A stretch of DNA of 64,000 nucleotides from Candidatus Limnocylindrales bacterium (lineage in GTDB: Bacteria; Verrucomicrobiota; Verrucomicrobiia; Limisphaerales; UBA11358), in the NCBI GenBank assembly GCA_035604955.1, contig DATNHM010000064.1, forward strand, positions 42,362-106,361, in the 5' to 3' direction. The notes under the pieces were generated by a model. The model made no database searches, was not told where the DNA came from, and saw only the letters and a program-made list of their open reading frames with translations. Shown here in pieces: positions 2,503-30,104 of the stretch. Numbering within the stretch: position 1 is the stretch's first letter; every line of letters begins with the position of its first letter. The position numbers were made by a program, and so were the translations under genes.

Positions 2503-4821
2503 TTATTCCTGCGGATAAACCAGAATGCGGTCGTGCACCACTACGATTAAATCGTTTTTCTTCCCGCCGGTCACATTGGCCACCAGCGCTTCGCGCGGTT
2601 CCGGCAACGCGTCCGTTGCGCCCCGGAAGGTGTGCTGTTCAAAGACCTGCCAGCGAATGGCCGGCGCCAGTTTGTGCTGCCGCGTAAAATTCACAATATC
2701 GAGATAATTTTTGGCCGTCTCCAAAAATATCAGTTCCTTGCGGCCGTCACCGTTTAAATCACCGGCCGACACGTCATTCAGATTACCGTCCTTGATGGGT
2801 GTGTCATAACCATCGAGCGCCTCCAGGTTCCACACTTCGCCACCCAACGGCATCCAGGCGACGGCGTTCTGGCCCAGAAAGGCAATACTGTGCGTGTCCG
2901 GACCGCCCAACGACACGGACTGCACGCCGTTGAAATCGGAGACCGGCAGTTGCACGTTGCGCCGGACCTGCCAGACCCCGGCGGCATCGCGCTCGCATAA
3001 CGTCAAACACCCGTGTTCGGCGTCGAGCAGAAAAATGGAAGGGGCCGGGTTGGTGCCGTTTCGCAACGCCGTGGCGCCGACGATGCGCGAATCACTCCAC
3101 GAACCGTTGATCTGGTCCTTCACGCGAAACACCCACTCCGACCGGTTGGTGGCGCCCGCGGTTTCCGTTTCCTTTTCGAGCACGACCGCGCGCACAAAAT
3201 TCTTTTGGGGCAACAACAATTCCGGCTTGCCATCGCCATCCACGTCCACCGACGTCAGCCAGGGCCGTTCCATCGCGCCGCCGGGCGGGTCCACATCTTT
3301 TTCATCAAAATTCCCGTCGGATTTTTGCAGCAGCACCTTGATTTTTTCATAGGGAATCAGCACCACCAGATCCGGCAACCCGTCCTGGTTCACGTCCTGA
3401 ATCGCCATCGCCACCGGGTTGGAGGTGAACGTTTCACTCAACTTTTGGGTCCGGATTTTGCCGTCCGCGGTGCGGATCACCAGAAAACGCTGTCCATTCT
3501 GATCCACAATCATCGCCAGGGCCGGCTTGGCGCCGGGACGCAGCGCGCCCACCGCCATCACCAGCGGCTTGCCGTCAATCGGCAGGAGCGCGGGAAACGG
3601 CAGCCGGCCGTTCTTATCAAATTGCGTCACGCCCACCGCGTTTTCGCTCTGGCTCAGGAGAAAAATTTCCGATTTGCCGTCGTCGTTCCAATCCGCCGCC
3701 GCCAACTGGCTCACCCCGGCCAGGGTGGAAAACGTCTGCGGTTCGGCCAGGGAACCGTCCGGTTGCTGCAAATACACCGAGATTTGCCCGCTGTCCGGCT
3801 GGGCCACGAGCAAATCCGGCCGGCCATCACCGTTGACATCGGCCCAAAGCACTCCGCGTTGCGCCGCATCCGTCTTGGTCAGCGGCAGGATTTGGAATTG
3901 CCCCTGGCGAAACGCGCCGGACAAAGGTTCGGCCGGTTTGCGGATAAACTGCGAAACTTCCGCCCGGCCGGAGCTTTGCGCGATGGTGACCACGTAATTT
4001 TTGGCGTCCCCTTCCAGATTGTCCGCCGTATACGAGCGGATGGGCGGTGATTTGAAATAAATCTCCGGGCCGAGCTGGCCGGAAGCGCTTTGCAGCCGGA
4101 ACCGAAACGGCGTCGGGCTGTCCCAATCCACCAACAACAAATCTTTCCGGCCATCGCCGTTCACGTCCACGATTTGCGCGGCCTCCGGTGTGCCCGAATA
4201 GGCGATTTTTTGCGGCTCACCCAGCGTGTGGTCCGCCAATTGCGGCAGAAAGTACAGCGAGCCGTTGTCGCCCAGCAAAACGAGGTCCGCGCGCCCGTCG
4301 CCGTTCAAATCACCCTCGGCCAGCGCGTTGGCGTCGGTCCGCCCGTTGTCAATGTGCCAGCGTTTGGGATCGCTCCAGCCGTTGGTTCCATGATTGTAAA
4401 CCACCTCCAGGTCCTTGCCGTCGCCATAAAAGGCAATATCCGGTTTGCCGTCCCCGTTGAGGTCAGTCACCACCATGGCGCTGATGTGTTCATCCACGGG
4501 AATGGAATCAATGCGAAAACGCGAGCCGGGCGGCAATTGATTGATCTCCAGCGGTTGTGATGAATCCACAACGGTTTTGGCATTGGTTTTTCCGGTCTGA
4601 TTGTAGAGCAACATGATTTTCGACCGCAGATTGTTGGCCACCACGAGATCGTTCAAGCCATCGCCGTTCAAATCCGCCGCGTGCAACAGGCTGATGGTCT
4701 GGTCAATCGGAAAGATTTCCGGGCCGGTAAACACCAGACCCGGCGCGGTGGTTTTGCCGTGACCGACGAAAACAAAATTGAAAATCAACGCCGTCAGGGC
4801 GGCATACCATGAAAATTTCAT
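2503..4821 (-). CDS. FG-GAP/VCBS repeat-containing secreted protein
   Basis: Many DxNGDGxxD repeats (DLNGDGKPD, DVNGDGRKD, DVDGDGKPE). The ATG at 4821 gives signal peptide MKFSWYAALTALIFNFVFVGHG. Confidence 0.8.
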   Translation of the reverse strand: MKFSWYAALTALIFNFVFVGHGKTTAPGLVFTGPEIFPIDQTISLLHAADLNGDGLNDLVVANNLRSKIMLLYNQTGKTNAKTVVDSSQPLEINQLPPGSRFRIDSIPVDEHISAMVVTDLNGDGKPDIAFYGDGKDLEVVYNHGTNGWSDPKRWHIDNGRTDANALAEGDLNGDGRADLVLLGDNGSLYFLPQLADHTLGEPQKIAYSGTPEAAQIVDVNGDGRKDLLLVDWDSPTPFRFRLQSASGQLGPEIYFKSPPIRSYTADNLEGDAKNYVVTIAQSSGRAEVSQFIRKPAEPLSGAFRQGQFQILPLTKTDAAQRGVLWADVNGDGRPDLLVAQPDSGQISVYLQQPDGSLAEPQTFSTLAGVSQLAAADWNDDGKSEIFLLSQSENAVGVTQFDKNGRLPFPALLPIDGKPLVMAVGALRPGAKPALAMIVDQNGQRFLVIRTADGKIRTQKLSETFTSNPVAMAIQDVNQDGLPDLVVLIPYEKIKVLLQKSDGNFDEKDVDPPGGAMERPWLTSVDVDGDGKPELLLPQKNFVRAVVLEKETETAGATNRSEWVFRVKDQINGSWSDSRIVGATALRNGTNPAPSIFLLDAEHGCLTLCERDAAGVWQVRRNVQLPVSDFNGVQSVSLGGPDTHSIAFLGQNAVAWMPLGGEVWNLEALDGYDTPIKDGNLNDVSAGDLNGDGRKELIFLETAKNYLDIVNFTRQHKLAPAIRWQVFEQHTFRGATDALPEPREALVANVTGGKKNDLIVVVHDRILVYPQE

Positions 4822-4872
4822 GCCGCGCAACCTGCCATCTGCCGATGCCCTTGGCCAGTTTATTCGCATGCC

Positions 4873-4955
4873 CATCGTCCTCGTCCTCGTTTTCGTAATC
4901 TTAATCTTAATCTTAATCGCAGCCGAAAATCCGGTCGAGAACGAGGAGGATGAGG
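4873..4955. repeat. composite palindrome with a central (AATCTTA)n heptamer array
   Basis: catcgtcctcgtcctcgttttcg / (taatctt)x3 at 4896..4918 / cgagaacgaggaggatgagg; the outer arms are imperfect inverted repeats. Confidence 0.7.
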
Positions 4956-4959
4956 AAAA

Positions 4960-5382
4960 TCATTCGCCGATGAAATGCAGCACGACGTGGCGCGCGTGCC
5001 CATGGAGGCGGTGTTCCCACAGGTAAATCCCCTGCCAGGTGCCCAGGGCCAGCCGGCCCTGACGCACAGGAAGGCTCAGATTTACCGTCGTGAGCGCTGT
5101 GCGGATGTGTGCCGGCATGTCATCGTCGCCTTCCAGAGTGTGCTCGAATAACGGGTCGCCATCGGGCACGAGCCGTTTGAAGAATGCGTCCAGATCGCGC
5201 CGCACCTCGGGGCTGGCGTTTTCCTGGATCAACAACGAAGCCGAGGTGTGTTGCAGATGAATCGTCAGCAAACCCTCTTTGAATCTGTTGTTGTCCACCC
5301 AGGCCTCAAGCTCAGGCGTAAACTCATAAAGGCCGCGCCCGCCCGTGGCAATGGTCAGTTCATGCGAAAGTTGCCGGAACAT
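4960..5382 (-). CDS. yjbQ: YjbQ/UPF0047 family protein (secondary thiamine-phosphate synthase-like)
   Basis: 140 aa; HLQHTSASLLIQENASPEVRRDL ... DDDMPAHIRTALT ... LGTWQGIYLWEHR is typical of YjbQ. Confidence 0.85.
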   Translation of the reverse strand: MFRQLSHELTIATGGRGLYEFTPELEAWVDNNRFKEGLLTIHLQHTSASLLIQENASPEVRRDLDAFFKRLVPDGDPLFEHTLEGDDDMPAHIRTALTTVNLSLPVRQGRLALGTWQGIYLWEHRLHGHARHVVLHFIGE

Positions 5383-13469: not shown

Positions 13470-13509
13470 GTGTGAAATGGAAGCGTTTCTCCGTCAAGAA
13501 AGAAGGCGG

Positions 13510-13664
13510 GAGACAGAGGCCGGATGACAGAGGTCAGAGGTCAGCAGGGGCAGAAGTCACGAGATCGCGCAGAATATGCGCTTTACGAGGCGTTCCCGAT
13601 TCAGACGTCCTCAAATCGTATATCGTAAATTGTAAATACCGGGACTCCTTACGTCGTCCCCTAC
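13510..13664. repeat. composite repeat: (GACAGAG/GTCAGAG) array, (TTTACGA)/(TCGTAAA)-type heptamer hairpin, REP-A half
   Basis: gagacagaggccggatgacagaggtcagaggtcagcagg; agaatatgcgctttacgag ... caaatcgtatatcgtaaattgtaaatac; ggactccttacgtcgtcccctac (13642..13664). Confidence 0.7.
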
Positions 13665-13720
13665 TATTCAAAAGAGAGGCTTGCGCGGGAGCCGATGGCA
13701 TTTATGATTATCTGGCCATC

Positions 13721-15271
13721 ATGAAGTTGAAGCGCCCACAGTTGGTCCCCAACAGCTCCGTGGCCCGAATGCTCCAAACGGCCGATCAAGCCTGGGAACG
13801 CCGCGATTTCCAGCAATGCTTTGAGCAGATGGAACGCGCCAGTCGTTTGGACCCGGCCAATGCCAGGATACTGCTGATCCTGGGCCAGCGATACGGATTG
13901 CGTTACGATTATGCCGCCGCCGAACGCTGCTTTGACAAGGCTCTGCGCGTGGCCATACGGAAGACCGACGCGCTGGCGGCTGCGTGCCGGCTGTGCGCAA
14001 ATTTTGTCAACCCCAAACTGCCCGAACGGTATTTTCAAAAGGCCCTGGAACAAAACAATGCGACGCCGGAAACCTTCGCCACAGTGGCGGAGTTCTACGA
14101 AGGCGTGCGGCGCGTTGAAGAGGCATCCAAATTGTTGGACCGGGCGTTGCAGTTGGATGCCAACTGTGCTTTGGCCCGCCTGACCCGCGCGCGGCTGAAC
14201 CGCAACGCAGGACATCTGGAGGAAGCCGAACAGATTTTGCGCCCCATTCTGGCCACCGCGGAGCCGCAGGTCCGGATCCGGGGGTATTATGAGCTGGGCG
14301 CCATTCTGGATCGGCAAGGGCGCTACGACGAGGCGATGGCGGCGTTTTTGGAAGCCAAGGCGATTTTGCTGGCGAAGAACCAACCGTTGCTCGACCAGGC
14401 GCGCACGCATCGCCTCCTCATGAAGACGTTGTGGGCCGACTATACGGCCGAAGCCATGCAACGCTGGTTTGATCTGGGCCCGGAACTCCAACCGCTCCGG
14501 CGCCTGGCGTTCCTGGGCGGCCATCCGCGTTCGGGAACCACTTTGTTGGAACAAGTGCTGGATTCGCACCCGGACGTTGTTTCAGCCGAAGAAACGCACG
14601 TTTTTGTGGACGATGTATACATGCCGCTTCGATCCAGGCTGCCGGGAAGCCCGCCGATGTTTGCCATTCTGGAAGCCGCACAGACGGATGCCTTGCAACA
14701 GTGCCGCGCCGGATATTTCCACTCCATGGAACTGTGCTTGAGCCAACCGATTGGCGACCGGCTGCTGGTTGACAAGAATCCTCCCATAACCCTTTACCTG
14801 CCGGCCCTGATCCGGGCATTTCCCGAAATCAAAATTTTGTTTGCCTTGCGGGATCCGCGGGACGTGGTGCTGAGTTGTTTCATGCAATCCTATCTGCCGG
14901 TGACGCTTCCGACCGTATCCTATCTGAGCCTCGAAGAGACGACTGAAGGTTACACGTACTTGTGCGAGGAATGGGGGCTTTTTTCGTCCATGATGAAAAA
15001 CGCCTGGCTGAAAGTGCGCTATGAAGACATGGTGGCGGATTTGGAAACAGTGTCCCGGCGCGTATTGGATTTTCTGGGAGTGTCCTGGGACCCGTCGGTA
15101 CTGCGTTTTGATGAACATGCCCGGGGCAAAACAGTGCGCACTCCGACCTATGCCGACGTGACCCAGCCGGTCTATAGACGCGCCCAGGGCCGCTGGCGGA
15201 ATTATCAGAAATATCTCGAACCGTGTTTGCCCAAACTGGAGCCTTTTGTAAAGGCATTGGGATATGAATGA
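13721..15271 (+). CDS. TPR-repeat sulfotransferase, paralog 1
   Basis: The start at 13721 (MKLKRPQL) aligns with the other paralogs. N-terminal TPR half; C-terminal half has the PAPS 5'-PSB motif GGHPRSGTTLLEQVLDSHPD and the 3'-PB motif LRDPRDVVLSCF. Confidence 0.85.
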   Translation: MKLKRPQLVPNSSVARMLQTADQAWERRDFQQCFEQMERASRLDPANARILLILGQRYGLRYDYAAAERCFDKALRVAIRKTDALAAACRLCANFVNPKLPERYFQKALEQNNATPETFATVAEFYEGVRRVEEASKLLDRALQLDANCALARLTRARLNRNAGHLEEAEQILRPILATAEPQVRIRGYYELGAILDRQGRYDEAMAAFLEAKAILLAKNQPLLDQARTHRLLMKTLWADYTAEAMQRWFDLGPELQPLRRLAFLGGHPRSGTTLLEQVLDSHPDVVSAEETHVFVDDVYMPLRSRLPGSPPMFAILEAAQTDALQQCRAGYFHSMELCLSQPIGDRLLVDKNPPITLYLPALIRAFPEIKILFALRDPRDVVLSCFMQSYLPVTLPTVSYLSLEETTEGYTYLCEEWGLFSSMMKNAWLKVRYEDMVADLETVSRRVLDFLGVSWDPSVLRFDEHARGKTVRTPTYADVTQPVYRRAQGRWRNYQKYLEPCLPKLEPFVKALGYE

Positions 15272-19889: not shown

Positions 19890-20129
19890 ATTGATCCCCT
19901 TCCGTTTTGGTTGATTGGCGATGGGTAAAGACGGATCTTTTCTGAACACAATCATCCTATCTCATTTACTGTGATAATTCAATCACAAACCATAATTTAT
20001 CGAAAAGGCATGGAGGACTGGGCCGGCCGTCGTACCTGCCAGACGGACTTTGTAACCCGATACTCCGCCTGTGTTCGGCGTCAGTGTTGAAAGCACGGAA
20101 AATTGGAGCGCATCCTGACACCGTTCTGG

Positions 20130-20257
20130 GTAGGGACGGCGCGTTGCGCCGTCCGCGCCGCGTCCAGCGGCGCGAGGTCGTGGAAACCCTGGATTCCCAA
20201 GTATTCCTTTCCGCCCGCTACTTCGCGGGCGGGGCCGCCGCAGCGCAGCGGCCCTAC
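20130..20257. repeat. GTAGGG...CCCTAC bounded multi-hairpin REP-like element
   Basis: gtagggacggcgcgttgcgccgtcc ... ggggccgccgcagcgcagcggccctac. Confidence 0.65.
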
Positions 20258-20286
20258 CGGCTAAGGACAGTGTCAAGATGCACGCG

Positions 20287-20372
20287 AAAATTGCGATATG
20301 CGATTTACCATTTACGAAGCTTGTTTGATAATGAGGGCGCGCGTAAATCGCAGATCGTAAATCGAAAATAAC
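20287..20372. repeat. heptamer hairpin module (TTTACGA)n / (TCGTAAA)n abutting a start codon
   Basis: aaaattgcgatatgcgatttaccatttacgaag ... cgtaaatcgcagatcgtaaatcgaaaataac, then caac-ATG (20376). Confidence 0.7.
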
Positions 20373-20375
20373 AAC

Positions 20376-21920
20376 ATGAATCAACCGCAACAGGTTGCTC
20401 AAGGTGCCGTGGCCAGAATGGTCCAAATGGCGGACGCAGCCTGGGAACAGCGCCATTTCCAGCCATGTTTTGAGTTGATGGAGCAGGCCAGCCGTTTGGA
20501 CCCGGCCAATTTTGGGATCCTGCTAAACCTGGGCCAGCGTTATGGGTTGCGCTATGACTACGCCGCGGCTGAACGCTGCTTTGAACAAGCCGTGCGCGTG
20601 GCCAAAGATAAGACCCACGTGCTGACCGCAGCGGGCGAGTTGTCCGACTTTTTCGCCAACCCCAAACTGCCTGAGCAGTATTTTAAAAAGGCCATGGAGC
20701 AACAAGACGCGCCGGCCGGAACTTTCGCCAAAGCGGCGGAATTCTACGAACGTCTGCGGCGGATGGAAGAGGCCTCCACGTCGTTGGACCGCGCATTGCA
20801 ATTGGACCCCAAGTGCGGCCTGGCCTGGCTGGCTCGCGCCCGGCTGCTTCGCCACGCGGGAAACCTGGAGGAAGCCGAAATGGTCCTTCGTCCCATTCTA
20901 ACCACCGCGGAGCGGGAAGTGCGGATTCGCGGCTACTATGAACTGGGCGCCATTCTGGATCGGCAAGGACGTTACGATGAGGCCATGGCGGCCTTTCTGG
21001 AGGCCAAGAAGATATTGCTGGAGAATGCCCGGCCCATGATTGCCAATTTGCTGGCGGGCCGCGCCGTCATCAGACCACGGCGAGCCGACATCAAGGCCGA
21101 GGCCATGCAGGGCTGGTTTGACGCCAGAGCCGAACTCCAGCCATTCCACCGGTTGGCCCTTCTCGCGGGCCATGCGCGCTCGGGGACAACGCTGCTCGAA
21201 CAAGTCCTGGATTCGCACCCGGACATCATCTCAGCGGAGGAAACAGAGATTTTTATGGATGACGCGTTCCTGCCTCTCCGGGCCGGTCTTCCGCCAAATA
21301 TCACCATGTTCGGCGTTCTGAAACTGGCGCAGACCTCCGCCTTGAGACAATCCCGCGAACGCTATTTCCGCACGATGGAGCTGCACTTGAACCAACCCAT
21401 CGGCAACAGGCTGCTGCTTGACAAGAATCCCACGGTCACCTATCGCGTTGCGGCTTTTGCCCGGATTTTCCCGGAAGCAAAGATTCTACTCATGTTGCGG
21501 GATCCGCGGGACGTGGTGATGAGTTGCTTCATGCAACCCTACCTGCACATTGAGGTAACCGGCCTGTCTTATCTCACCCTCGATCTTACCGTTGACGATT
21601 ACACCTTCGTGATGGAGGCGTGGAAAGCCCACGGCCCTTTACTCAAAAACCCGTGCCTGGAAGTGCGCTACGAAGACACCGTGGCCGATTTGGAATCAGT
21701 CTCCCGGCGCGTGCTGGACTTTCTGGGCGTGTCCTGGGACGCCTCGGTGCTGAAATTTGACGAGCACGCGCGAACCAGGAAGGTGAAGTCGCCCACCTAC
21801 GCCGATGTGACCCAGCCGGTCTATAAGCGCGCCCAGGGCCGCTGGCGGAATTATGAGAAATATCTGAAGCCGTATCTGCCCAAATTGGAGCCGTTCGTGA
21901 AGGCGTTTGGGTATCAATAG
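20376..21920 (+). CDS. TPR-repeat sulfotransferase, paralog 4
   Basis: 514 aa; AGHARSGTTLLEQVLDSHPD (P to A in the PSB loop) and LRDPRDVVMSCF. Confidence 0.85.
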   Translation: MNQPQQVAQGAVARMVQMADAAWEQRHFQPCFELMEQASRLDPANFGILLNLGQRYGLRYDYAAAERCFEQAVRVAKDKTHVLTAAGELSDFFANPKLPEQYFKKAMEQQDAPAGTFAKAAEFYERLRRMEEASTSLDRALQLDPKCGLAWLARARLLRHAGNLEEAEMVLRPILTTAEREVRIRGYYELGAILDRQGRYDEAMAAFLEAKKILLENARPMIANLLAGRAVIRPRRADIKAEAMQGWFDARAELQPFHRLALLAGHARSGTTLLEQVLDSHPDIISAEETEIFMDDAFLPLRAGLPPNITMFGVLKLAQTSALRQSRERYFRTMELHLNQPIGNRLLLDKNPTVTYRVAAFARIFPEAKILLMLRDPRDVVMSCFMQPYLHIEVTGLSYLTLDLTVDDYTFVMEAWKAHGPLLKNPCLEVRYEDTVADLESVSRRVLDFLGVSWDASVLKFDEHARTRKVKSPTYADVTQPVYKRAQGRWRNYEKYLKPYLPKLEPFVKAFGYQ

Positions 21921-22030
21921 TTGGTTGAATGTTGAGGGTTGAGAGTTGAGGGTGACGGCTCGTCAGTAGCCTCGCCCCACCAATGGCCACAGCAGCATCA
22001 TTCCGGTGTGGCGAGCGTACTCGCGAGCCG
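21921..22030. repeat. (TTGAGGG/TTGAGAG) array plus a tail-to-tail REP-B pair
   Basis: ttggttgaatgttgagggttgagagttgagggtgacgg; CGGCTCGTCAGTAGCCTCGCCCCACC (21957..21982) ... GTGTGGCGAGCGTACTCGCGAGCCG (22007..22030). Confidence 0.7.
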
Positions 22031-22078
22031 CATCTGCACCGGCTGGAACCATTTGTGAAGGCGTTTGGATACGGGTAA
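22027..22078 (+). pseudogene. orphan 3'-end fragment of a fifth TPR-sulfotransferase paralog
   Basis: gagccgcatctgcaccggctggaaccatttgtgaaggcgtttggatacgggtaa reads EPHLHRLEPFVKAFGYG*. This matches the last ~16 codons of paralogs 1-4 (..LEPFVKAFGYE*). Confidence 0.6.
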
Positions 22079-22082
22079 GGCA

Positions 22083-22195
22083 GTCGAGGGTCGAGGGACG
22101 AGAGTCAGAGAATTTACGATATACGATTGACGATTTACGACACCTTTCGACCAAATGGCACCGCGCGTAAATCGTATATCGTCAATCGCAAATAG
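22083..22195. repeat. (GTCGAGG) array plus heptamer hairpin module, left flank of the HigBA-like cassette
   Basis: gtcgagggtcgagggacgagagtcagag; aatttacgatatacgattgacgatttacga - 25 nt - cgtaaatcgtatatcgtcaatcgcaaatag. Confidence 0.75.
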
Positions 22196-22486
22196 TTATG
22201 CCGGCACCAATTCAATCTTCACCTTGCGTCCCAAAGCACGGGCGGCTTTGCCCAGCGTGTTCAGTGTAACCGAGGAGTTCGACGCGTCCAGCAACCGGTC
22301 CACCGCTGCGCGGCTCGTTTTCATGCGCGCGGCCATTTGCGTCTTGGTCAATTCCCTCTCTTTCAAGAGGCGATCCAATTGGAGACTCAACGCCTGTTTC
22401 AGCGCGCGTGCCTCGACTTCGCCCAGGATGCCTTGTTCTTTCAGGAAATCCCGGAAGTCACTGCCACGATGATTTCTTTTGCTCAT
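22196..22486 (-). CDS. higA: XRE-family HTH antitoxin (HigA-like)
   Basis: 96 aa; LTKTQMAARMKTSRAAVDRLL HTH. 4-nt overlap downstream of the toxin gene (toxin-first order as in higBA). Confidence 0.7.
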   Translation of the reverse strand: MSKRNHRGSDFRDFLKEQGILGEVEARALKQALSLQLDRLLKERELTKTQMAARMKTSRAAVDRLLDASNSSVTLNTLGKAARALGRKVKIELVPA

Positions 22487-22779
22487 AGGTTTTGCAGATA
22501 TTGTCTTTTACGTTTCCTGGCCAAATCCAGTTCATCTGGCGGCGTCTTTTGTTGTTTCTTGATGAAACCGTGCCGCAGGACAATTTCCTGATCCACCACC
22601 GCAAATAACGTTCGCGCGATGCGTTTATCCAACCGTGAACGGACTTCCCAAACGCCGTCACCCAAATTGGCAACCAGCGGCTTCCCGACCGGCCACGCAT
22701 ATTGCACCGTCAGAATGTCCGTGCCGATGGCCTGGCAGTCCTCTTTAGACAATGCTTTCAGATTCCCGCACAGGCTCAT
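22483..22779 (-). CDS. higB: RelE/ParE-superfamily toxin (HigB/Gp49-like)
   Basis: 98 aa; GDGVWEVRSRLDKRIARTLFAVVDQEIVLRHGFIKKQQKTP is typical of the Gp49/HigB family. Confidence 0.7.
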   Translation of the reverse strand: MSLCGNLKALSKEDCQAIGTDILTVQYAWPVGKPLVANLGDGVWEVRSRLDKRIARTLFAVVDQEIVLRHGFIKKQQKTPPDELDLARKRKRQYLQNL

Positions 22780-22913
22780 TGCCCGTCTCCGTCTTGAAAA
22801 AGACGACCTTGAGCGGGCGTTCAGCCTTCATCGGTAAAACACTGTATCAGAATTGATACATGTGTCAACCGGGAAGATATTCCGGAGGAAATGAGGTCAC
22901 GAGGTTCTGACGG

Positions 22914-22999
22914 GATTTACGATATACGATATACGATTTATGAGGCCCTTTCGATAAGGTAACGCAGCGCGTAAATCGTATATCGTCAATCGAAAATGA
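22914..22999. repeat. heptamer hairpin module, right flank of the HigBA-like cassette
   Basis: gatttacgatatacgatatacgatttatga - 26 nt - cgtaaatcgtatatcgtcaatcgaaaatga; a near-copy of 22111..22195. Confidence 0.75.
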
Positions 23000-23141
23000 T
23001 GGGACTCCTGGCGTCGTCCCCCACTATTTGGCAGTAGGCGCCGAGGTAACGAGGCGAGGACTCCTCACGTCGTCCCCTACTATCTTCAGTAGGCGCCGAG
23101 GTCACGAGGCCCTGGACTCCTTACGTCGTCCCCTACTTTCT

Positions 23142-24074
23142 TTACCGGGTTTTCCGCGAACTGCGGAACGGCAACTTTCGGTCGCCGGCCTCAGGCTGAC
23201 GTTGCCGCTGGTATAACTTCCAAAACTTCGGCCAGAAATCCTCCTGCCACGGATGCAACGTGGGATAGCCGGGAACAATGGCGCCACCATAGGGCCAATC
23301 AGTAGGAGCCGAGGTCACAAGGCTGGACTCCCCACGTCGTCCCCTACCATCTTCCGTAGGAGCCGAGGTCACGAGGCTGGACTCCTTACGTCGTCCCCTA
23401 CCATCTTCTGTAGGAGCCGAGGTCACGAGGCTGGACTCCCCACGTCGTCCCCTGCCATCTTCCGTAGGAGCCGAGGTCACGAGGCTGGACTCCTTACGTC
23501 GTCCCCTACTATCCCCTGCGGCGATCAATCCAGCCCGAACGGGATTGGCCAGGATGTAAAAACAGATCCTCGCAAAGGCATCGTGCTTCCTTTCCTCATC
23601 ACTCAAGACGTGGTCGTGCGCCTGCGGCTGAAATTTGTGCGGCGCCAAGCGCGGTTCCAGGTGCGTCCGTAAAAATGACATGGCGTTTCGCTGGTCCGTG
23701 TCGCACCGCAGTCCCAGCCACAGCAGATGAATGTGGTCGGGCATCAGACAGTAAGCCGGGCACAGCAACCCTTCCCGCGCGGCGGCGTGGAGCAACAGCT
23801 CACGGAATCCGCAGTGAAAGGCGGCATTCAACCAGCCGGTGGCCCGGTCAAATACCGTCAGGGTCCAGTGAACCGCGGCGTCGCCCCGATAAAATTCCGG
23901 GTCCAGGCGGGGAAGATGACCCGGATGTTTAGTAGGGGACGACGTAAGGAGTCCAGGCCTTGACGTGTCCAGTCTCTCCTCACGCCTCGTTACCTCGGCG
24001 CCTACTGGCCGCGGGGTACCAGTAGGGGACGACGTGAGGAGTCCGGGTCTGGGGATTTCCTGGTCCTCATTCAC
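23142..24074 (-). CDS. REP-associated tyrosine transposase (IS200/IS605-type Y1 HUH, RAYT-like), with REP-derived N-terminus and internal REP tract
   Basis: HUH motif in YCLMPDHIHLLW and catalytic-Tyr motif FYILANPVRAGL. About 48 N-terminal aa and 72 internal aa (4 x GRGRRKESSLVTSAPTED) are translations of REP-A; true start uncertain. Confidence 0.7.
   Translation of the reverse strand: MNEDQEIPRPGLLTSSPTGTPRPVGAEVTRREERLDTSRPGLLTSSPTKHPGHLPRLDPEFYRGDAAVHWTLTVFDRATGWLNAAFHCGFRELLLHAAAREGLLCPAYCLMPDHIHLLWLGLRCDTDQRNAMSFLRTHLEPRLAPHKFQPQAHDHVLSDEERKHDAFARICFYILANPVRAGLIAAGDSRGRRKESSLVTSAPTEDGRGRRGESSLVTSAPTEDGRGRRKESSLVTSAPTEDGRGRRGESSLVTSAPTDWPYGGAIVPGYPTLHPWQEDFWPKFWKLYQRQRQPEAGDRKLPFRSSRKTR
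23302..23509. repeat. four tandem REP-A units, 54-bp period, in frame within the RAYT CDS
   Basis: GTAGGAGCCGAGGTCACRAGGCTGGACTCCYYACGTCGTCCCCTRC + 8-bp linker; unit starts at 23302, 23356, 23410, 23464. Confidence 0.9.
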
Positions 24075-24300
24075 GAGGCCGATATAGCAGAGACTCGTTA
24101 CCTCGTCTCCTACTATTTTCAGTGGGAGCCGAGGTGACGAGGCTGGGACTCCTCACGTCGTCCCCTACTATTTTGGGAGGCAGTAGGCGCCGAGGTAACG
24201 AGACGGGGCAAGGGACTCCTTACGTCGTCCCCTACTATTTTCGGTAGGAGCCGAGGTAACGAGGCTCGGACTCCTTACGTCGTCCCCTACTGAGATAACG

Positions 24301-24337
24301 AAAAATAAAAAAACCCGCTCTCCCGAAGGAGAGCGGG
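24301..24337 (-). terminator. Rho-independent terminator of the PEP-CTERM gene
   Basis: CCCGCTCTCC-cgaa-GGAGAGCGGG (24314..24337) followed on the minus strand by TTTTTTTATTTTT. Confidence 0.75.
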
Positions 24338-24366
24338 GATGAAAAAAACAATCGCTTGTGGCGTGC

Positions 24367-25038
24367 TTAGACTTGCTTGCGGCGGAACGCCATCAGCGCG
24401 GCCAAGCCCAAACCAGCCAACGCAATCGTTGTCGGTTCAGGAACGCTGGTGACTGTAAATCCCCCCATACCGACCAAATATCCCGTCGGGGTCGTTCCCG
24501 TGGCAATCGAAGCCAACACGAATGGAGCCGATTGGCCTCTCCACAGACCGGCACCGGTCGAGCTGGCAAAGTCTGAGCCATTATAGGCTTCAACGATGAA
24601 TGCGATCGTGCCTGAGCTATATGCCGGAATCTTGATCCCAGCGCCAAGGAAATATCCCGCGTTGCCACCGGCCGGTGGTGCTGTAATTGCAGCATCCAAC
24701 CCGCTGCCATAAGCGAACGCTGCCGGGTAACCGAAAGCGCCCTGTGCAGTTGCGCCAGAATTGACAAATGTAAGCGCCGTATAGGTTCCGGTGTTACCAA
24801 CTGAGTACAGAAGGGCGGCAGTGAATTCCTTACCGACGCCGTGACCGGCTACGGAGGGACCAACGCCACCGGTTACAGGATTTGCCGATGACGCGAACGT
24901 GACCGGAGCGTTTATTTGAATGGAATTAAGAGCACTGGTGTAGTTCTGGAAATAAACGTTCCCTTGAGCATGGGATGTTGCCACCATGGCCACAGAGCCC
25001 GCGATTCCGAGTACTGATGCTACGATTGTTCTTTTCAT
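24367..25038 (-). CDS. PEP-CTERM sorting-domain secreted protein, paralog of 19215..19889
   Basis: Signal peptide MKRTIVASVLGIAGSVAMVATSHA; C-terminus VPEPTTIALAGLGLAALMAFRRKQV. Confidence 0.8.
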   Translation of the reverse strand: MKRTIVASVLGIAGSVAMVATSHAQGNVYFQNYTSALNSIQINAPVTFASSANPVTGGVGPSVAGHGVGKEFTAALLYSVGNTGTYTALTFVNSGATAQGAFGYPAAFAYGSGLDAAITAPPAGGNAGYFLGAGIKIPAYSSGTIAFIVEAYNGSDFASSTGAGLWRGQSAPFVLASIATGTTPTGYLVGMGGFTVTSVPEPTTIALAGLGLAALMAFRRKQV

Positions 25039-25092
25039 ATTATGTTATTGTTGTTCAGGTTGATTGTTATTTTCGGTAAATTTTTTGTTAGT

Positions 25093-25722
25093 TTATGGCA
25101 GTGACTGCACCCATGGATAGGTAGCACCGAGCGGCTGGACAAAGAAACCTTCGCCAGGCGTTACAGCCGGATTAGGCGAAAAGCTTGACGCAGTTTTGGT
25201 GCAACTTTGGTAACCTGAGCCTGTCCACACCAAAGCGTGACTTCCGGTTGGTATATGAAGATTCATATTGGTTCCACCCAACGTGTCCGAGAAGGGAACG
25301 GGTGAGCCTACCAAGGTGTAAGCACTGCCACCCGCCACGTTGTTGGTCACACTTCCGCTTGGAGGACAGATCACGTTGCCGACAAAAGTATTCGTTACAG
25401 GATTGGCTCCAAGAGGCTGGATGAAGAACCCTGCTCCCGGGGCAATCGTTGGATTCGGAGAAAAACTGCCTGCGGTCTTAGTACAACTTGTAAAACCTGA
25501 CCCAGTCCACACCAAGGCATGGGAGCCAGTTGGTTCTGTGACAAGGCTTGCCAAGGTGTTTGAACCGTTATCCAAGGGATTAGCCAGCAAGCTGTAAGCA
25601 CTACCACCGGGTGACACAACAGTGACATAACCAACGATGTTGGCTGAATAGACCTGTGCGTTTGAGGAGACAAGACCGGCAACGAGTGCAGCTGCAGCGG
25701 TCAATAGTATTTTAGTTCTCAT
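25093..25722 (-). CDS. secreted protein with an internal tandem duplication (no PEP-CTERM)
   Basis: Signal peptide MRTKILLTAAAALVAGLVSSNA; two ~70-aa repeats (TGSHALVWTGSGFTSCTKTAGSFSPNP.. / TGSHALVWTGSGYQSCTKTASSFSPNP..). Confidence 0.65.
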   Translation of the reverse strand: MRTKILLTAAAALVAGLVSSNAQVYSANIVGYVTVVSPGGSAYSLLANPLDNGSNTLASLVTEPTGSHALVWTGSGFTSCTKTAGSFSPNPTIAPGAGFFIQPLGANPVTNTFVGNVICPPSGSVTNNVAGGSAYTLVGSPVPFSDTLGGTNMNLHIPTGSHALVWTGSGYQSCTKTASSFSPNPAVTPGEGFFVQPLGATYPWVQSLP

Positions 25723-25820
25723 ATTCTGTTTCTGTTTTAGTTTTACCGTGTGTGTCACCAATATCTCAGAATGCAAGGGGGGTGTCAACGATTTTTTGAG
25801 ATTTTTTGAACGATTTTGAG

Positions 25821-26207
25821 GGTGACGGGTGACGGGTGACGTGTGACTAGAACTGATTGGCTATCAACGACTTGTGCTATAATCGTCTCACGCGTCAGAG
25901 GTCACATGTCACCGGGGAAAAGAGGAAAAAGCGCTTTGTAACCAGTTTGTAACCAGTTTTAAAGGAGTTGAGGGTTGAGAGTTGAGGGTTGAGAGAAAGG
26001 GAAAAAGTCCAGGAATGTCGCTAATGTGCGCTAATTATTAAGATTAATACAGGGTCATTGCCGCCAAAAGGCGCCCGTCTGCGTCAGCTCCCGTCTTCAC
26101 TGCGTTACGCCGCGGCGAGTCGAGGCGGCAAGGAGGGCGGTAGTCAGCAGTCAGTGGTCAGTAGTTGGTAGTCAGTAGTCAGTAGTTTTTAGCGGTTACC
26201 CGTCACA
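25821..26207. repeat. intergenic field of concatenated short-period arrays
   Basis: (GTGACGG)x3.5 25821..25847; tttgtaaccag x2; (TTGAGGG/TTGAGAG)x4 25967..25995; ctaat/attaag tract; (CAGYAGT)x6-TTTTT-agcggttacccgtcac 26140..26207. Confidence 0.85.
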
Positions 26208-26318
26208 TTTCAAAGGCGGAAGCGGAGGGCTGAATTGAACCATTTTTAACGCGAAGACGCCAGGACGCAACGAGGTGAAGGAATGCGGGGAAGATGAGAA
26301 TCGGCAGTATCCTGATTT

Positions 26319-26363
26319 GTAGGCGACGAGGTAACGAGTCGCACTCCTTACGTCGTGCCCTAC
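26319..26363. repeat. solitary REP-A copy
   Basis: gtaggcgacgaggtaacgagtcgcactccttacgtcgtgccctac. Confidence 0.75.
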
Positions 26364-26428
26364 CTTCAAATCAGGACATTACCTTAGATTCGCTTGACGG
26401 GCCGTATTCGTCGTGGTGTATTAATGTT

Positions 26429-27325
26429 ATGAAATTGGGTGGATTGATATTAGCCCTTGGAACGCTCGCTTCAACGATTCTCCCGACGGAATCGGCGCGG
26501 TCGGCCACGATACGGGATGACGAGCCGGACAGCAGTTATCTGGCGCTGGCCGCCAGTCCGCAATACGCCCCGGTGGGGACGTTTGTCAACAGTTGGGGCT
26601 ATACCGGCTGCGCCACGCTGATTGCGCCGGATTGGGTGCTGACGGCCGCGCATGTTCTGACCGCCGCCACTTCCGGCACTTTCACCATTAACGGAATGTC
26701 CTACGGCTCGACCCAGCTCATCAGCAATCCGGGCTGGAATGGCACTGCGTTCAACGGTTACGATTTCGGACTGGTGCAACTGAGCACGCCGGTTTCGGGC
26801 ATTACGCCCGCAACGCTCTACACGGGGTCTGCGGATTTGGGAGAAGACCTGACCGGGACGTATGTTGGATTCGGTTTTACCGGAACGGGCCTGACGGGGT
26901 GGCAATCAGGCACCGCCGGTCAGATGCGCGCTTTTCAAAATGTCCTGGATGGAGACGTAGGCAATCCTTCGCTGGTGTTGTGCAGCGATTTTGACAATCC
27001 CGCCGGCACGGCGAACACGTTTGGCAGCGCGACGCCCTTGACGCTGGAAGGCTGCGTGGCGCCGGGCGACAGCGGCGGCGGCGTGTTTATCACGGTTGAC
27101 TCGCAAACGTATCTGGAAGGCGTGATCTCCTTTGTGGCCGCCACCCATGCCAGCGCCGGCAATGCGAATTCCGTTTACGGCGACGTCAGCGGGTCCGGGA
27201 GAGTCTCGGCATTGGTTCCCTGGATAGACAGCATCACCGGAATTCCTGAGCCAACGACATCGGCGCTGCTGGCCGGCGCGGGTCTCGCCATGCTTTTGGG
27301 CTGGCGACGACGGCCAATTCCCTGA
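26429..27325 (+). CDS. trypsin-like (S1) serine protease with PEP-CTERM anchor
   Basis: His motif LTAAHVL, Ser motif GDSGGGVF, signal peptide MKLGGLILALGTLAST, C-terminus IPEPTTSALLAGAGLAMLLGWRRRPIP. Confidence 0.8.
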   Translation: MKLGGLILALGTLASTILPTESARSATIRDDEPDSSYLALAASPQYAPVGTFVNSWGYTGCATLIAPDWVLTAAHVLTAATSGTFTINGMSYGSTQLISNPGWNGTAFNGYDFGLVQLSTPVSGITPATLYTGSADLGEDLTGTYVGFGFTGTGLTGWQSGTAGQMRAFQNVLDGDVGNPSLVLCSDFDNPAGTANTFGSATPLTLEGCVAPGDSGGGVFITVDSQTYLEGVISFVAATHASAGNANSVYGDVSGSGRVSALVPWIDSITGIPEPTTSALLAGAGLAMLLGWRRRPIP

Positions 27326-27486
27326 GCAGCACACCCCGGTCATCATCGCGCTCCGCAGCGCGGCAACGGTTCCGGAAACCACTGGTGGCCTGGGGTTGCG
27401 CCGATATATTTTCCAAAAATTGACGTCATCGGCGTTTGACCTTTTAACCGCGGGTTACACGGATTTTTGACGCGAAGAGGGGAAGT

Positions 27487-27709
27487 CCGCGTAAAAGGCT
27501 GGCGCCTCACGCGGCGGGCCCCGTAAAAGGCGGATGCCTCACGCGGCGGGGCCAACCACGGAATTCAACCACGGATGAACACAGATGAACACGGATGAAC
27601 GCGGATTTTTAGACACGAATTGCACGAATTTTCACGGATAAAGCCGCAAAGCGGCACAAAAGGCACAAGGGCGGAAAGAAAAAGGTTGAAGGCTGAAGGC
27701 GGTGAAGGG
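27487..27709. repeat. tandem 32-bp repeat followed by four concatenated short-period arrays
   Basis: ccSCGTAAAAGGCKGRYGCCTCACGCGGCGGG x2 (27487..27551); (ACGGATGA/ACAGATGA) array ending TTTTT; (CACGAATT)x2; (GCRGCACAAA)x3; (GGYTGAAGG)x3. Confidence 0.8.
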
Positions 27710-27774
27710 AATGGGTGCAGGGTACAGTCAGAACATAGGTAACACTGTTCGGTTCACAGGTCGCCGCCGTGATT

Positions 27775-28101
27775 TCAAGCTGCCAAACCAAGCATACGGG
27801 CGCAAACGGTTTCAATCGCCACAAAGTTCTCTTTCGGAAAAGCGGCAATACGCCGAATGATTTTTGCGTTGTCCACCCCGGCGATGCCCAGCACATTCAC
27901 CACCGATTCCTGTTTGAGCCACGCGGGCTTGGGAAAGTGAACTTCACATTCCCCGCCACGAATCTCCGTGGTCATGGGAACCACGACGGACATGGCGCGT
28001 TCGGCATCGGGGCGGCGCACGGAAACAACCACACACGGTCTGATTTTGGCGGCCATACCCAAATCCACGATCACGACGTCGCCGCGATCAAATTTGGTCA
28101 T
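27775..28101 (-). CDS. mazF: PemK/MazF-family toxin
   Basis: MTKFDRGDVVIVDLG...IRPCVVVS...VVPMTTE is typical of MazF/PemK; 14-nt overlap with the upstream antitoxin. Confidence 0.75.
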   Translation of the reverse strand: MTKFDRGDVVIVDLGMAAKIRPCVVVSVRRPDAERAMSVVVPMTTEIRGGECEVHFPKPAWLKQESVVNVLGIAGVDNAKIIRRIAAFPKENFVAIETVCARMLGLAA

Positions 28102-28303
28102 AATCAATTTCGGGCGCGGGTCCGAGTTTGTTCCACGTATCGGCCACAATAGCTTCCCAGGCACGCGCCGGAGTTTTCACCCTGGGCGCGGGCATGACCC
28201 ACCAGCCGCCCTTTTGGGCGGTGACCAGGTATTGCTGTCCTTTCCGGGTACCGCGTATGGAAACCCGGCCCTTGTCGTCGGCTTTGACCAGCGTGGTTTG
28301 CAT
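28088..28303 (-). CDS. mazE: AbrB/MazE-type antitoxin
   Basis: MQTTLVKADDKGRVSIRGTRKGQQYLVTAQKGGWWVMP SpoVT/AbrB-like N-terminus; the ATG at 28303 lies inside ORF 28088..28489. Confidence 0.65.
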   Translation of the reverse strand: MQTTLVKADDKGRVSIRGTRKGQQYLVTAQKGGWWVMPAPRVKTPARAWEAIVADTWNKLGPAPEIDYDQI

Positions 28304-28406
28304 GTGGGAAAGTTCCCACGGCGCAGGGTGGGTGTCAAGCCAGAGAGCGGCGGGCCCCGTAAAAGGCGGGCGCCTCACGCGGTGGGCCCCGTAAATGGAC
28401 TGGTTT

Positions 28407-28534
28407 GGTGGGGCGAGGCTACTGACGAGCCGGGGTGAAGGGGAAAATCGGTTCAACAAAACGGCTCGCGAGGACGCTCGCCCCACCAAACCAAATCATC
28501 TCAACCGACGGCTCGCGAGGACGCTCGCCCCACC
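28407..28534. repeat. REP-B palindrome plus an extra half copy
   Basis: GGTGGGGCGAGGCTACTGACGAGCCG (28407..28432) ... CGGCTCGCGAGGACGCTCGCCCCACC (28462..28487) and again at 28509..28534. Confidence 0.8.
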
Positions 28535-28536
28535 CG

Positions 28537-29838
28537 TCAGCCATTACTCGCCTGCACCAAAATTTTAAGGGAATCCGAAGTTGGTTTGGCGGCCAAAGCC
28601 ACGGCTTCCGCGGTTTGTTCCAACGGAAAGCGATGCGTGATCAACCGGCGCACGTCGAGCCGGCGGGAAAAGACCAGACGCGCGACTTCGGACTGCAAAG
28701 TGAAATCCGACGAGTAGCTGCCGATGAGGTCTTTCTCGTCCAGACAAATTGACGCGAGGTCAATTGGGGAGATTGGGGATGGGAGTTGGGAGTTGGGAGG
28801 AATGGCCACCTCACCCGCATCAAATAATGTTTTCCCTTTAACCCTCACCCGACCTTTGGCCACCCTCTCCCGCTCCCGCGAGCGAGGGGTCTGGCTTTCT
28901 CCCCTGCCATCTGCCATCTGCCATCTGCCATCTGCTCTTTTGGTGTGAGCGAAAAGGAGGACCTGGCCGCCGCCGCGGACGAGGGCCAACGCCTGATGCA
29001 CGGCGGCATCGGAGGAAACGGCGATGATGGCGGCGTCCAAATTGGGAATTGTAGGAGACGAGGTGACGAGCCTCTTATTCATCCCAGGTTTTGGATTTCG
29101 GACTTCGAGTTTTTCAGTTAGAGCCTCGTCACCTCGGCTCCTACTGACATTAATCGTCCAGCGGGCGCCGAATTTTTTGGCGAGTTTCAACCTGGATTCG
29201 AGCAAATCGGTGGCGAGGACGCGCGCGCCGGCGAGTTGCAGCAAGCGCGTGAACATCAGGCCAATCGGCCCCTGCCCCGCCACCAACACAACGTCGCCGC
29301 GCAACAGGTTCAATCGCCGGACGGCCTTGAGCACGGTGTTGACGGGCTCCAACATCGCGCCTTCTTCAAAAGAGTTTTTCGCCGGGATTTTCACGACGCC
29401 GGGCAGGACGAAGGGCATGACGCAGACGTATTCGGCGTAGCCGCCGCCCGCCGGTTCGAAACCGGCGGTGATGCCGGTGCGTTTGTAGGTTTCGCATTGG
29501 GCAAAGGCGTGGTGCCGGCAATAATGGCAATCCAGGCAGGGCACGTGATGGTGGAGGGCGACGCGGTCGCCGACTTTGAGTGACGAGTGACGGGTGACGA
29601 GTGACGGGTTTCCGGCGCCGATCTGGACGATGGTGCCGGCGGTTTCGTGGCCGAAGATGCGCGGGGGCGGGACGGTGCCGTGCTGGATTTTTTTGATGTC
29701 GGTGGGGCAGACGCCGCAGACGGCGACCTTGACGAGCAGTTCATTCGGGCCGAGGCGCGGGACGGGGACGGTTTCGAGGCGCAGGTCGTTGACGCCGCGA
29801 TAAACGACGGCGCGCATGGTTTTGGGAATGGCGAACAC
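28537..29838 (-). CDS. zinc-dependent medium-chain alcohol/threonine dehydrogenase family protein carrying three in-frame repeat insertions
   Basis: GVCPTD, GHE, structural-Zn cluster CLDCHYCRHHAFAQC, Rossmann VAGQGPIG. It has extra segments relative to typical MDR dehydrogenases, encoded by repeats at 29578..29608, 29051..29144 and 28763..28935. Start at 29838 or 29817. Confidence 0.8.
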   Translation of the reverse strand: MFAIPKTMRAVVYRGVNDLRLETVPVPRLGPNELLVKVAVCGVCPTDIKKIQHGTVPPPRIFGHETAGTIVQIGAGNPSLVTRHSSLKVGDRVALHHHVPCLDCHYCRHHAFAQCETYKRTGITAGFEPAGGGYAEYVCVMPFVLPGVVKIPAKNSFEEGAMLEPVNTVLKAVRRLNLLRGDVVLVAGQGPIGLMFTRLLQLAGARVLATDLLESRLKLAKKFGARWTINVSRSRGDEALTEKLEVRNPKPGMNKRLVTSSPTIPNLDAAIIAVSSDAAVHQALALVRGGGQVLLFAHTKRADGRWQMADGRGESQTPRSRERERVAKGRVRVKGKTLFDAGEVAIPPNSQLPSPISPIDLASICLDEKDLIGSYSSDFTLQSEVARLVFSRRLDVRRLITHRFPLEQTAEAVALAAKPTSDSLKILVQASNG

Positions 29839-29850
29839 GGGGGAGTTTTA

Positions 29851-30104
29851 ACCGCGGATGACGCGGATGACACGGATTTTTTTGACGGAAAGACGACTAA
29901 CCGCAAAGAGGCAAAGACGCAGAGAACACTGGAAGATCAGGATTAAGAGTAAGATTAAGATTAAGATTTTTGGCGGAACCGTGAAAGACACGAAATTTTA
30001 GACACGGATTACACGGATAAACACGGATTTTTTGAAGGAGTCAGCAGTCAATAGTCAGTGGTCAGCAGCTTTTTACGCGTCACCTGTCACACGCCACATG
30101 TCAC
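29851..30104. repeat. field of six different short-period arrays, most ending in a T-run
   Basis: (CGGATGA) 29851..29883; (GCAAAGA/CGCAGAG) 29899..29934; (GATTAAG) 29938..29971; (ACACGGAT) 29985..30034; (GTCAGYA) 30040..30075; (CGYCACN) 30076..30104. Confidence 0.85.

Follow-up and report, generated by a model that had tools for sequence, protein, structure and literature searches.

The window analysed here is a 64-kb stretch of a metagenome-derived genome (contig DATNHM010000064.1 of assembly GCA_035604955.1, positions 42,362–106,361), and the element of interest within it is a gene for a REP-associated tyrosine transposase (RAYT, or TnpA_REP) that is bracketed by repetitive extragenic palindromic (REP) repeats and carries four further copies of the same repeat in frame, between its catalytic tyrosine helix and a conserved C-terminal domain (Table 1). 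The gene is an intact open reading frame (ORF) on the reverse strand. Its first in-frame start, and the only one 5′ of the conserved core, is a GTG, not the ATG at 24074 that a sequence-only reading of this DNA had given. That reading's account of the motifs holds: both the HIH and the Y motif are present, and in an alignment of 114 homologs H114, H116, Y173 in FYILANPVRAGL and N177 are invariant, with P178 (of Y173-ILA-N177-P178) >90% conserved.

The repeat is recognized by two arms, GTAGGAGCCGAGGTNACGAGG and GGACTCCTYACGTCGTCCCCTAC, each of which has 14 matches in the window at up to three mismatches and none in shuffled sequence; nearly all of these matches are concentrated at 23002–24290. 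The 7.5 flanking copies counted earlier are found as 2.5 units downstream, two that are split in the 5′ end of the ORF and three upstream, and the gene-proximal edge of the downstream array (23136) lies 5 nt past the RAYT stop codon (23142–23144). For the four internal copies Tandem Repeats Finder returns the exact 54-nt period that had been read by eye, with 0% indels; the flanking arrays repeat every 56 nt and, with indels, every 55 nt. The internal units are all 46 nt with a 2-nt loop, the flanking ones 46–54 nt with loops of 2–10 nt. Moreover, the internal units alternate as ABAB, the second and fourth in plus-strand order being identical, which suggests duplication of a 108-nt doublet.

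All of this concerns units of the form GTAG...CTAC at the RAYT locus. As units, the ~46-bp imperfect palindromes of the sequence-only reading are real, but as palindromes they are weak, since the 46-nt unit is only ~75% self-complementary. Judging from its sequence, it is more apt to regard it as two related 21–23-nt GTAG-headed repeats paired head-out, and it is best read as the ‘double foot’ type of REP (Quentin et al., 2018; PMC6006769).

Table 1. Features of the RAYT locus and further sites of its repeat, in window coordinates.
Feature	Position	Strand	Remarks
Downstream REP array	half unit 23002–23024; full units 23034–23080, 23089–23136	+	2.5 units
RAYT ORF, longest form	23142–24074	−	310 aa + stop; GTG start 24072–24074
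Linker codon 5 (D259) and conserved C-terminal domain (WPYGGAIVPGYP...FWPKFWKLY...RKLP), residues 260–310	23145–23300	−	pLDDT >90
In-frame REP insert, residues 189–258	23301–23510	−	210 nt, 70 aa, four 46-nt units
Internal REP units, n = 4	23302–23347, 23356–23401, 23410–23455, 23464–23509	GTAG-first on +, antisense to RAYT gene	46 nt each, 8-nt spacers
Linker codons 1–4 (AAGD; DNA GCCGCAGGGGAT)	23511–23522	−	common to all insert-bearing orthologs
Catalytic HUH/Y1 core, residues 54–184 (LPRL... to ...NPVRAGLI)	23523–23915	−	
Catalytic Tyr173	23556–23558	−	in Y---NP motif 23526–23561 (FYILANP)
HIH (H114, H116)	23727–23735	−	
REP-derived N-terminal codons	23932–24044	−	arms R 24022–24044, L 23985–24005, R 23932–23954; encode GLLTSSPT...VGAEVTRR...GLLTSSPT
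Split REP units at ORF 5′ end, n = 2	arms 23932–23954, 23985–24005, 24022–24044, 24093–24113	−	
Conserved 5′ flank	24082–24113	−	REP arm GTAGGAGACGAGGTAACGAGT (24093–24113), TGCTATAT box (24082–24089), 7 nt to GTG
Upstream REP array	three units 24122–24168, 24183–24235, 24244–24290	+	loops 3–9 nt
Degenerate L arm and perfect R arm, 77 nt apart	13544–13664	+	upstream of likely true start, ORF 13472–15271
Solitary degenerate REP unit	26319–26363	+	just 5′ of likely true start, secreted PEP-CTERM protease-like gene
In-frame REP: L arm, 52 nt, inverted L arm	29051–29144		within zinc alcohol-dehydrogenase-family gene 28537–29838 (−)

Enzyme identity and pairing with the repeat

With the tract deleted from the query, a protein search returned 1782 relatives, many of them labelled RayT by JGI and mainly from Verrucomicrobiae bins; among the matches listed, most are proteins of 188–200 aa that are 70–84% identical to the tract-deleted protein and colinear with it over 95–100% of the query. 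The top PDB match of the family profile is E. coli TnpA_REP (4ER8, E = 2.5e-4), where the HMH of 4ER8 stands opposite HIH and YIYINPVKHGWVKQVSDWPFS opposite FYILANPVRAGLI...WPY. An AlphaFold (AF2) model built from the homolog alignment has a predicted local distance difference test (pLDDT) score >90 at residues ~56–186 and 256–305, and its top fold match in Foldseek is again 4ER8 (4er8_A; E = 3e-7, template modelling (TM) score 0.65), followed by the TnpA proteins of ISDra2 and IS608. Class 2 TnpA_Y1 enzymes have the signature Y---NP (PMC6006769), and the window protein is, as far as sequence and modelled fold can tell, a divergent TnpA_REP/RAYT of this class that has an additional conserved domain of ~50 aa at its C-terminus. 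The deposited NCBI gene model (VN784_14505, P0008, 23142–23831) begins at Leu82 and loses the conserved LPRL...HWTLTVFDR strand, so that the deposited protein is N-terminally truncated.

The type of repeat at a locus varies with the enzyme. All 15 orthologous loci with at least 72% protein identity have arrays of the window repeat on both sides of the gene. In three relatives at 56–61% identity the window repeat is absent and other GTAG-headed hairpins, in inverted arrangement, bracket the gene (e.g. GTAGCGGCTTTCGGCAGAAAGCCGC). This co-variation of repeat type with RAYT clade, by tradition the main ground for matching a REP to its RAYT, supports the cognate REP–RAYT pair that the sequence-only reading had proposed, as do the match to 4ER8 in sequence and fold and the dispersal of the repeat. 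When one genome per species was scanned for the right arm and occurrences were counted as 8-kb blocks, the arm was found in more than 119 blocks, almost all from Verrucomicrobiota subdivision 3, Pedosphaera or Limisphaerales, and at least 60 blocks with the repeat arm come from a single Amazon bin (PSRM01). The window repeat is thus dispersed and abundant in the subdivision 3, Pedosphaera and Limisphaerales group.

The in-frame insert and its history

In orthologs that are empty at this site, a 5-residue linker of the form xExEx (RETEI, KETEV and similar) joins NPVRAGL(I/V) to WP(Y/F). Alignment with these tract-lacking orthologs, a comparison that the sequence-only reading had proposed, gives a clean in-frame insertion at the linker, between the catalytic tyrosine and the conserved tail as that reading had it, but of 70 aa (210 nt) rather than 72 aa. 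The first unit, A + 46 nt + T, adds 48 nt (16 codons) after linker codon 4 and before codon 5, the five linker residues being kept (AAGD-D, the hyphen marking the insert), and each further unit adds 54 nt, so that the window gene has 48 + 3 × 54 = 210 nt. A 50-nt insertion with a compensating 2-nt deletion was considered, since empty and filled sites share GGAGAT, and was ruled out by the clean 48-nt count. The linker GCAGGGGAT is similar to the head of the REP, GTAGGGGAC.

Six genes from independent assemblies, that of the window and five others from metagenome-derived loci (here numbered with an L), carry the insert, all at the identical codon site, in the same orientation and with the frame kept. 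The linker holds four units in the window gene, one unit in L012 and in L005 (93.5% core identity, syntenic and with the same Gp49 toxin gene downstream), and two units in L001, L004 and L003, where one of the two has a frame-preserving 21-nt internal duplication. Selection for an intact protein would predict such constancy of frame, which holds for six loci, at three copy numbers and through one internal duplication. Read from the sequence, only one of the three frames of a unit is free of stops in the orientation of the insert, GTAG yielding TAG and TCGTGA yielding TGA in the others, and this open antisense frame encodes SRGRRKESSLVTSAPT(ED), a hydrophilic peptide. In the AlphaFold model the insert is disordered (pLDDT <50) and sits between the tyrosine helix and the C-terminal domain. 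When the junction plus insert served as query in a further protein search, only short insert-free proteins were returned, and the known insert-bearing ones were missed too.

Repeat-derived codons also occur in the N-terminal tail. In the window gene no in-frame start lies between these codons and the core; there, and in L005, L006, L008, L004 and L003, the sole in-frame start is 5′ of the repeat-derived codons and the frame is open throughout, with up to six arm-derived blocks at the N-terminus of L008. Orthologs without such codons keep an ancestral N-terminus, MNGKPRAYYLPRL. The tail is modelled as disordered (pLDDT <50), and its repeat-derived codons are probably translated, because the core is under purifying selection (see below). 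Aligning the 5′ regions of orthologs showed that nearly all (the window, L001, L003–L006, L008, L009, L011–L014 and L130) share a REP arm GTAGGAGACGAGGTAACGAGTCTC, a TGnTATAA box, 8–9 nt and then an ATG or GTG, the box not being evident in L059. The sequence-only reading had placed the start codon in the expanded loop of a REP: arms do lie on both sides of it, but the upstream arm is conserved with the box, and the downstream arms are in-frame insertions after about codon 6–11. Folded as RNA, the 5′ region is predicted to bring the upstream arm and the first arm downstream together about the start codon, with a marginal advantage over shuffles (z = −1.8). An overlap of REPs with either end of a RAYT gene has been noted before (Di Nocera et al., 2013; PMC3733652). 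The 5′ arrangement looks like a −10 promoter of the extended type, from which the mRNA would be leaderless or nearly so.

The RAYT genes that carry the insert are under strong purifying selection. The ratio of nonsynonymous to synonymous divergence (dN/dS; Nei–Gojobori, 163 shared codons) is 0.07–0.19 in all 15 pairs of the six genes, with dS = 0.18 between the window gene and L005 and 0.8–2.1 in other insert-bearing pairs; on this ratio the insert-bearing genes are functional, not wrecks. The sequence-only reading had doubted whether a gene so interrupted is still active, but with its ORF intact, its catalytic residues invariant and dN/dS this low the window RAYT is likely to be so.

Taken as a whole, the locus is, in our judgement, probably a REPtron with a functional RAYT that tolerates repeat units in its flexible segments, the units in the linker having a single origin followed by recombination. 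Such a REPtron would comprise a single gene for a TnpA_REP-type HUH tyrosine nuclease, bracketed by cognate GTAG...CTAC double-foot arrays. The 48-nt form and the 54-nt period are multiples of three, one antisense frame is open and the encoded peptide is disordered, so that units can persist in the flexible segments of genes, and many genes in these genomes do hold them. The RAYT gene has taken up units at two such spots, one in the N-terminal tail after the start codon and the other in the 5-residue linker between the tyrosine helix and the C-terminal domain, where the peptide would be tolerated as a passive spacer. The linker insertion most likely arose once (or rarely), together with the AAGD-D/E linker, and the linker plus REP cassette would then have spread among RAYT alleles by homologous recombination. 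Units of 54 or 108 nt, duplicated in tandem or deleted, could account for the changes in copy number (one, two and four are seen), and variants that broke the frame would have been eliminated by selection for the intact protein.

Several results weigh against this reading. The sequence-only reading had set the lack of a Y1_Tnp domain hit beforehand as a refuting test, and the curated profiles gave no match above threshold: Pfam Y1_Tnp (PF01797) scores 11.9 bits against a cut-off of 23 (E = 0.26, not significant) and NCBIfam REP_Tyr_transpos (NF047646) 37.3 bits against a cut-off of 80. For the 46-nt unit as single-stranded DNA, the hairpin has −6 to −7 kcal/mol and z ~0, no better than shuffled sequence, so that no stable fold is predicted. 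No Shine–Dalgarno sequence was found before the start in the window gene or the aligned orthologs, and a sigma-70 scan found no canonical RAYT promoter. In neighbour-joining trees the insert-bearing genes do not form a clade (0 of 200 bootstraps), so a single origin requires recombination; one clade with vertical inheritance was dropped as an account on the same evidence. Recombination of the cassette is in turn suggested by a single clear mosaic pair, in short sequences. Finally, all of the sequences compared are metagenome assemblies, in which an error of assembly could have changed the number of copies in a 216-nt tandem tract.

The mosaic pair bears on whether the RAYT might instead have placed a REP repeatedly at a preferred target in its own gene, a form of self-homing. 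Enzymes of the IS200/IS605 type do insert at short specific target sequences, filled and empty genes are intermixed in the tree, and filled L012 is ~90% identical to empty L011 from the same sample series. Yet all filled alleles have GCCGCAGRGGAY as linker DNA, together with a fifth codon for D or E, most positions differing from the empty xExEx linkers, and the L012 linker differs from that of L011, its nearest empty relative, at 8 of 15 positions, which counts against plain insertion because that would keep the host's linker. Near the insert (60 positions, 15 of them in the linker and 45 beside it) L012 differs from L011 at 17/60 positions as against 30/288 distally (Fisher p = 7e-4), whereas its differences from filled L005 number 8/60 near the insert and 65/288 distally; the 45 nt to the left of the L012 insert thus resemble other filled alleles, as an imported recombination patch would. 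We therefore regard independent recurrent insertion as unlikely. It is a little less likely still that the tract is itself functional, whether as a length-variable tether that tunes the reach of the C-terminal domain to the active site or with the internal REPs as cis autoregulatory sites. In E. coli TnpA_REP the C-terminal tail after the tyrosine helix is autoinhibitory, its removal giving a hyperactive enzyme (PMC3479197), and the insert falls exactly between this helix and the C-terminal domain; its units are 90–93% mutually identical across lineages with saturated synonymous sites, and its copy number is polymorphic (1, 2 or 4). Against this, most orthologs are insert-free yet equally conserved, the flanking and dispersed copies are as well conserved as the internal ones, the ~50-aa domain is at most a putative homolog of the E. 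coli tail, and the repeat also occurs in unrelated genes, which argues for passive tolerance. The stronger form of the idea would make the tract a substrate-derived, copy-number-variable module that sets RAYT activity, through a longer tether to an autoinhibitory-like domain or through binding sites in the gene or its mRNA, in a cassette that spread because it was favoured; this we consider very unlikely.

The remaining alternatives question the gene or the assembly rather than the history of the insert. A decaying pseudogene, invaded by its own repeats and making no active enzyme, might be suspected from 70 extra residues beside the catalytic helix, an N-terminus also full of repeat-derived codons, a GTG as the only start and without a Shine–Dalgarno sequence, and a database model truncated at residue 82. 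But the ORF is intact with all catalytic and invariant residues retained, the frame is maintained at every copy number, in the model the insert loops out, disordered, from the folded core, and dN/dS is low in all six insert-bearing genes, which makes decay the most improbable of the explanations considered. Scarcely better are the prospects of an assembly artefact. The source is a short-read metagenome bin and the tract a 216-nt tandem array of near-identical units in ABAB order within a repeat-rich region; the same junctions, however, recur with one or two units in five other assemblies from different projects. The insertion is therefore real, and only the exact copy number in the window is uncertain.

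The repeat in other genes and the surrounding sequence

The window and the census loci together have 166 repeat sites; long open frames span 34–46% of these, as against 67–81% of random positions. Checked against Pfam, six repeat-spanning ORFs proved to be real genes, as is the dehydrogenase gene of the window, and the checked genes have Pfam domains on either side of the repeat (kinase–WD40, DUF748/AsmA-like, TPR and PSCyt2/PSD1 proteins). The family is not confined to extragenic positions, so the ‘extragenic’ in the definition of a REP does not hold for it. Outside the cluster at 23002–24290 the window has only three further sites (Table 1). Those at 13.6 kb and 26.3 kb were rejected as intragenic, both falling in spurious N-terminal ORF extensions, which leaves the dehydrogenase site as the sole truly intragenic one of the three.

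The dehydrogenase gene has Pfam ADH_N and ADH_zinc_N domains and a second in-frame insert of ~180 nt (28767–28950), bounded by heptamer repeats (CTGCCAT ×4.6 and GGGAGTT ×4.7). Dozens of tandem arrays of 7-bp units, three to seven copies each and of many different heptamers, are scattered across the window (e.g. 25820–25847, 25965–25995, 26140–26186, 29578–29609, 46010–46110 and 52681–52744). Most appear intergenic by eye, and some form inverted pairs, such as GTGACGG ×4 facing GCGTCAC ×4 at 52681–52744. At 22884–23024 a degenerate left arm (22884–22904) and a right arm (23002–23024) are separated by 97 nt that contain an 84-nt palindrome of heptamer repeats (22914–22997), an arrangement resembling a REP unit split by a second type of small element. 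A scan of 20000–30000 against Rfam gave no family matches.

The dispersed element takes the form, in related genomes, of a perfect 71-nt hairpin with a 23-nt arm, a 25-nt loop and the inverted arm, for which the predicted single-stranded DNA fold has −32 kcal/mol (z = −11). Such hairpins were seen in frame within large proteins in L028, L030, L035, L039, L050, L069, L084 and L103, where they usually encode VGDDVRSP-x8-(G)LLTSSPT; the loop is constant in length and different in sequence at each site. One Verrucomicrobiia bin (L130) has, 2 kb from a full RAYT of the window family (4665–5219), a second RAYT copy as a fragment (2455–2631, residues 129–186 only).

The neighbours of the RAYT gene are a PEP-CTERM protein gene and a toxin–antitoxin pair, and no tnpB is present at the locus. 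Directly 3′ of the RAYT lie a Gp49/HigB-like toxin gene (22483–22779, −) and a helix–turn–helix (HTH) antitoxin gene (22196–22486, −), with a sigma-70-like promoter, TTGACA-16-TACAGT, at 22868–22841; a Gp49-like toxin gene also follows the RAYT in L002 and L005. Elsewhere, the paralogous ORFs 13472–15271 and 20376–21920 (~500–600 aa) share long near-identical stretches (e.g. ...DPANxxILLxLGQRYGLRYDYAAAERCF...), and a REP pair lies upstream of the former. The bin carries the name Candidatus Limnocylindrales. Verrucomicrobiota are indicated, however, by the repeat, by the relatives of the RAYT and by the PEP-CTERM genes (24367–25038, 26294–27325), the host being a soil or peat verrucomicrobium of subdivision 3, Pedosphaera/Limisphaerales-like.

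Comparison with known systems

The locus bears on the spread of REPs and on the restraint of RAYTs. It adds a large verrucomicrobial RAYT clade, with ~1800 database relatives, in which the enzyme's own repeat stands in frame at a defined site beside the catalytic helix. Natural alleles with 0, 1, 2 and 4 units, apparently all under purifying selection, form an allelic series suited to asking whether a flexible insert between the tyrosine helix and the C-terminal domain alters nuclease activity and whether repeats in its own gene are a substrate of the enzyme. The word ‘extragenic’ describes this repeat family poorly, and gene callers both mis-start RAYT genes, as in the truncated NCBI model, and over-extend other ORFs through repeats.

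The closest general likeness is to the TnpA_REP/RAYT REPtrons typified by E. coli YafM (4ER8; Nunvar 2010; Ton-Hoang 2012; Messing 2012), with which the window locus shares the HUH motif, the tyrosine in Y---NP, the fold, and GTAG-headed repeats that bracket the gene, are dispersed (for the window repeat, in the genomes of relatives) and co-vary in type with the enzyme clade. The window protein is, however, only ~17% identical to 4ER8, falls below the curated hidden Markov model cut-offs and carries at its C-terminus a conserved, W-, F- and P-rich domain of 50 aa, while its repeats are weakly self-pairing 46-nt double-foot units rather than a bulged 12-bp hairpin. From the IS200/IS605 elements (TnpA of IS608 and ISDra2) the locus differs in having Y---N in place of Y---Q, no tnpB, no sign of multiple identical copies, and repeat arrays at its flanks instead of defined left and right ends; alike are the fold, the catalytic chemistry, the subterminal structured DNA on both sides and the fusion of a 5′ arm to the promoter region.

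The sequence-only reading had called a RAYT colonized in frame by its own repeats unusual, but there are precedents both for REPs kept in frame inside tnpA_REP genes (PMC6006769) and for in-frame copies in genes of Verrucomicrobia (PMC3733652), and the window repeat is itself in frame in other genes. In-frame self-REPs are already in the literature; what is new here is the RAYT family and the insertion site. Quentin et al. (2018; PMC6006769) described double-foot REPs (GT[AG]G...C[TC]AC) and frame-keeping REPs inside tnpA_REP genes, a feature that predominates within subclass 2.4 and occurs in some members of subclass 2.8. As in the window gene, subclass 2.4 enzymes carry their own double-foot REPs in the gene with the frame kept, as an insert that is variable, peripheral and probably harmless. 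The motifs differ, being NH[IFV]H, WQ and YIxNNP in subclass 2.4 (PMC6006769, Table 1) and DHIH, FQ (FQPQ) and YILANP in the window protein. So does the position, the window insert lying after the Y motif (residues 189–258) with a second set in the N-terminal tail, and its units are tandemly amplified, up to four copies. That survey makes no mention of Verrucomicrobiota, the phylum of the host.

The intragenic REPs of Di Nocera et al. (2013; PMC3733652) come from the other direction. Many GTAG REPs lie in frame within genes, most numerously in the verrucomicrobium Opitutus terrae, and Rickettsia palindromic elements are comparable in-frame repeats (Ogata et al., 2000, as cited in PMC3733652). 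In both, as in the window, short palindromic repeats stand in frame in functional genes and encode hydrophilic loop or linker peptides, and the window host belongs to a group, the Verrucomicrobia, that is especially rich in intragenic REPs. The difference lies in the host gene: the intragenic list of Di Nocera and colleagues has no transposase entry, whereas in the window the repeat sits inside its own presumed mobilizing enzyme.

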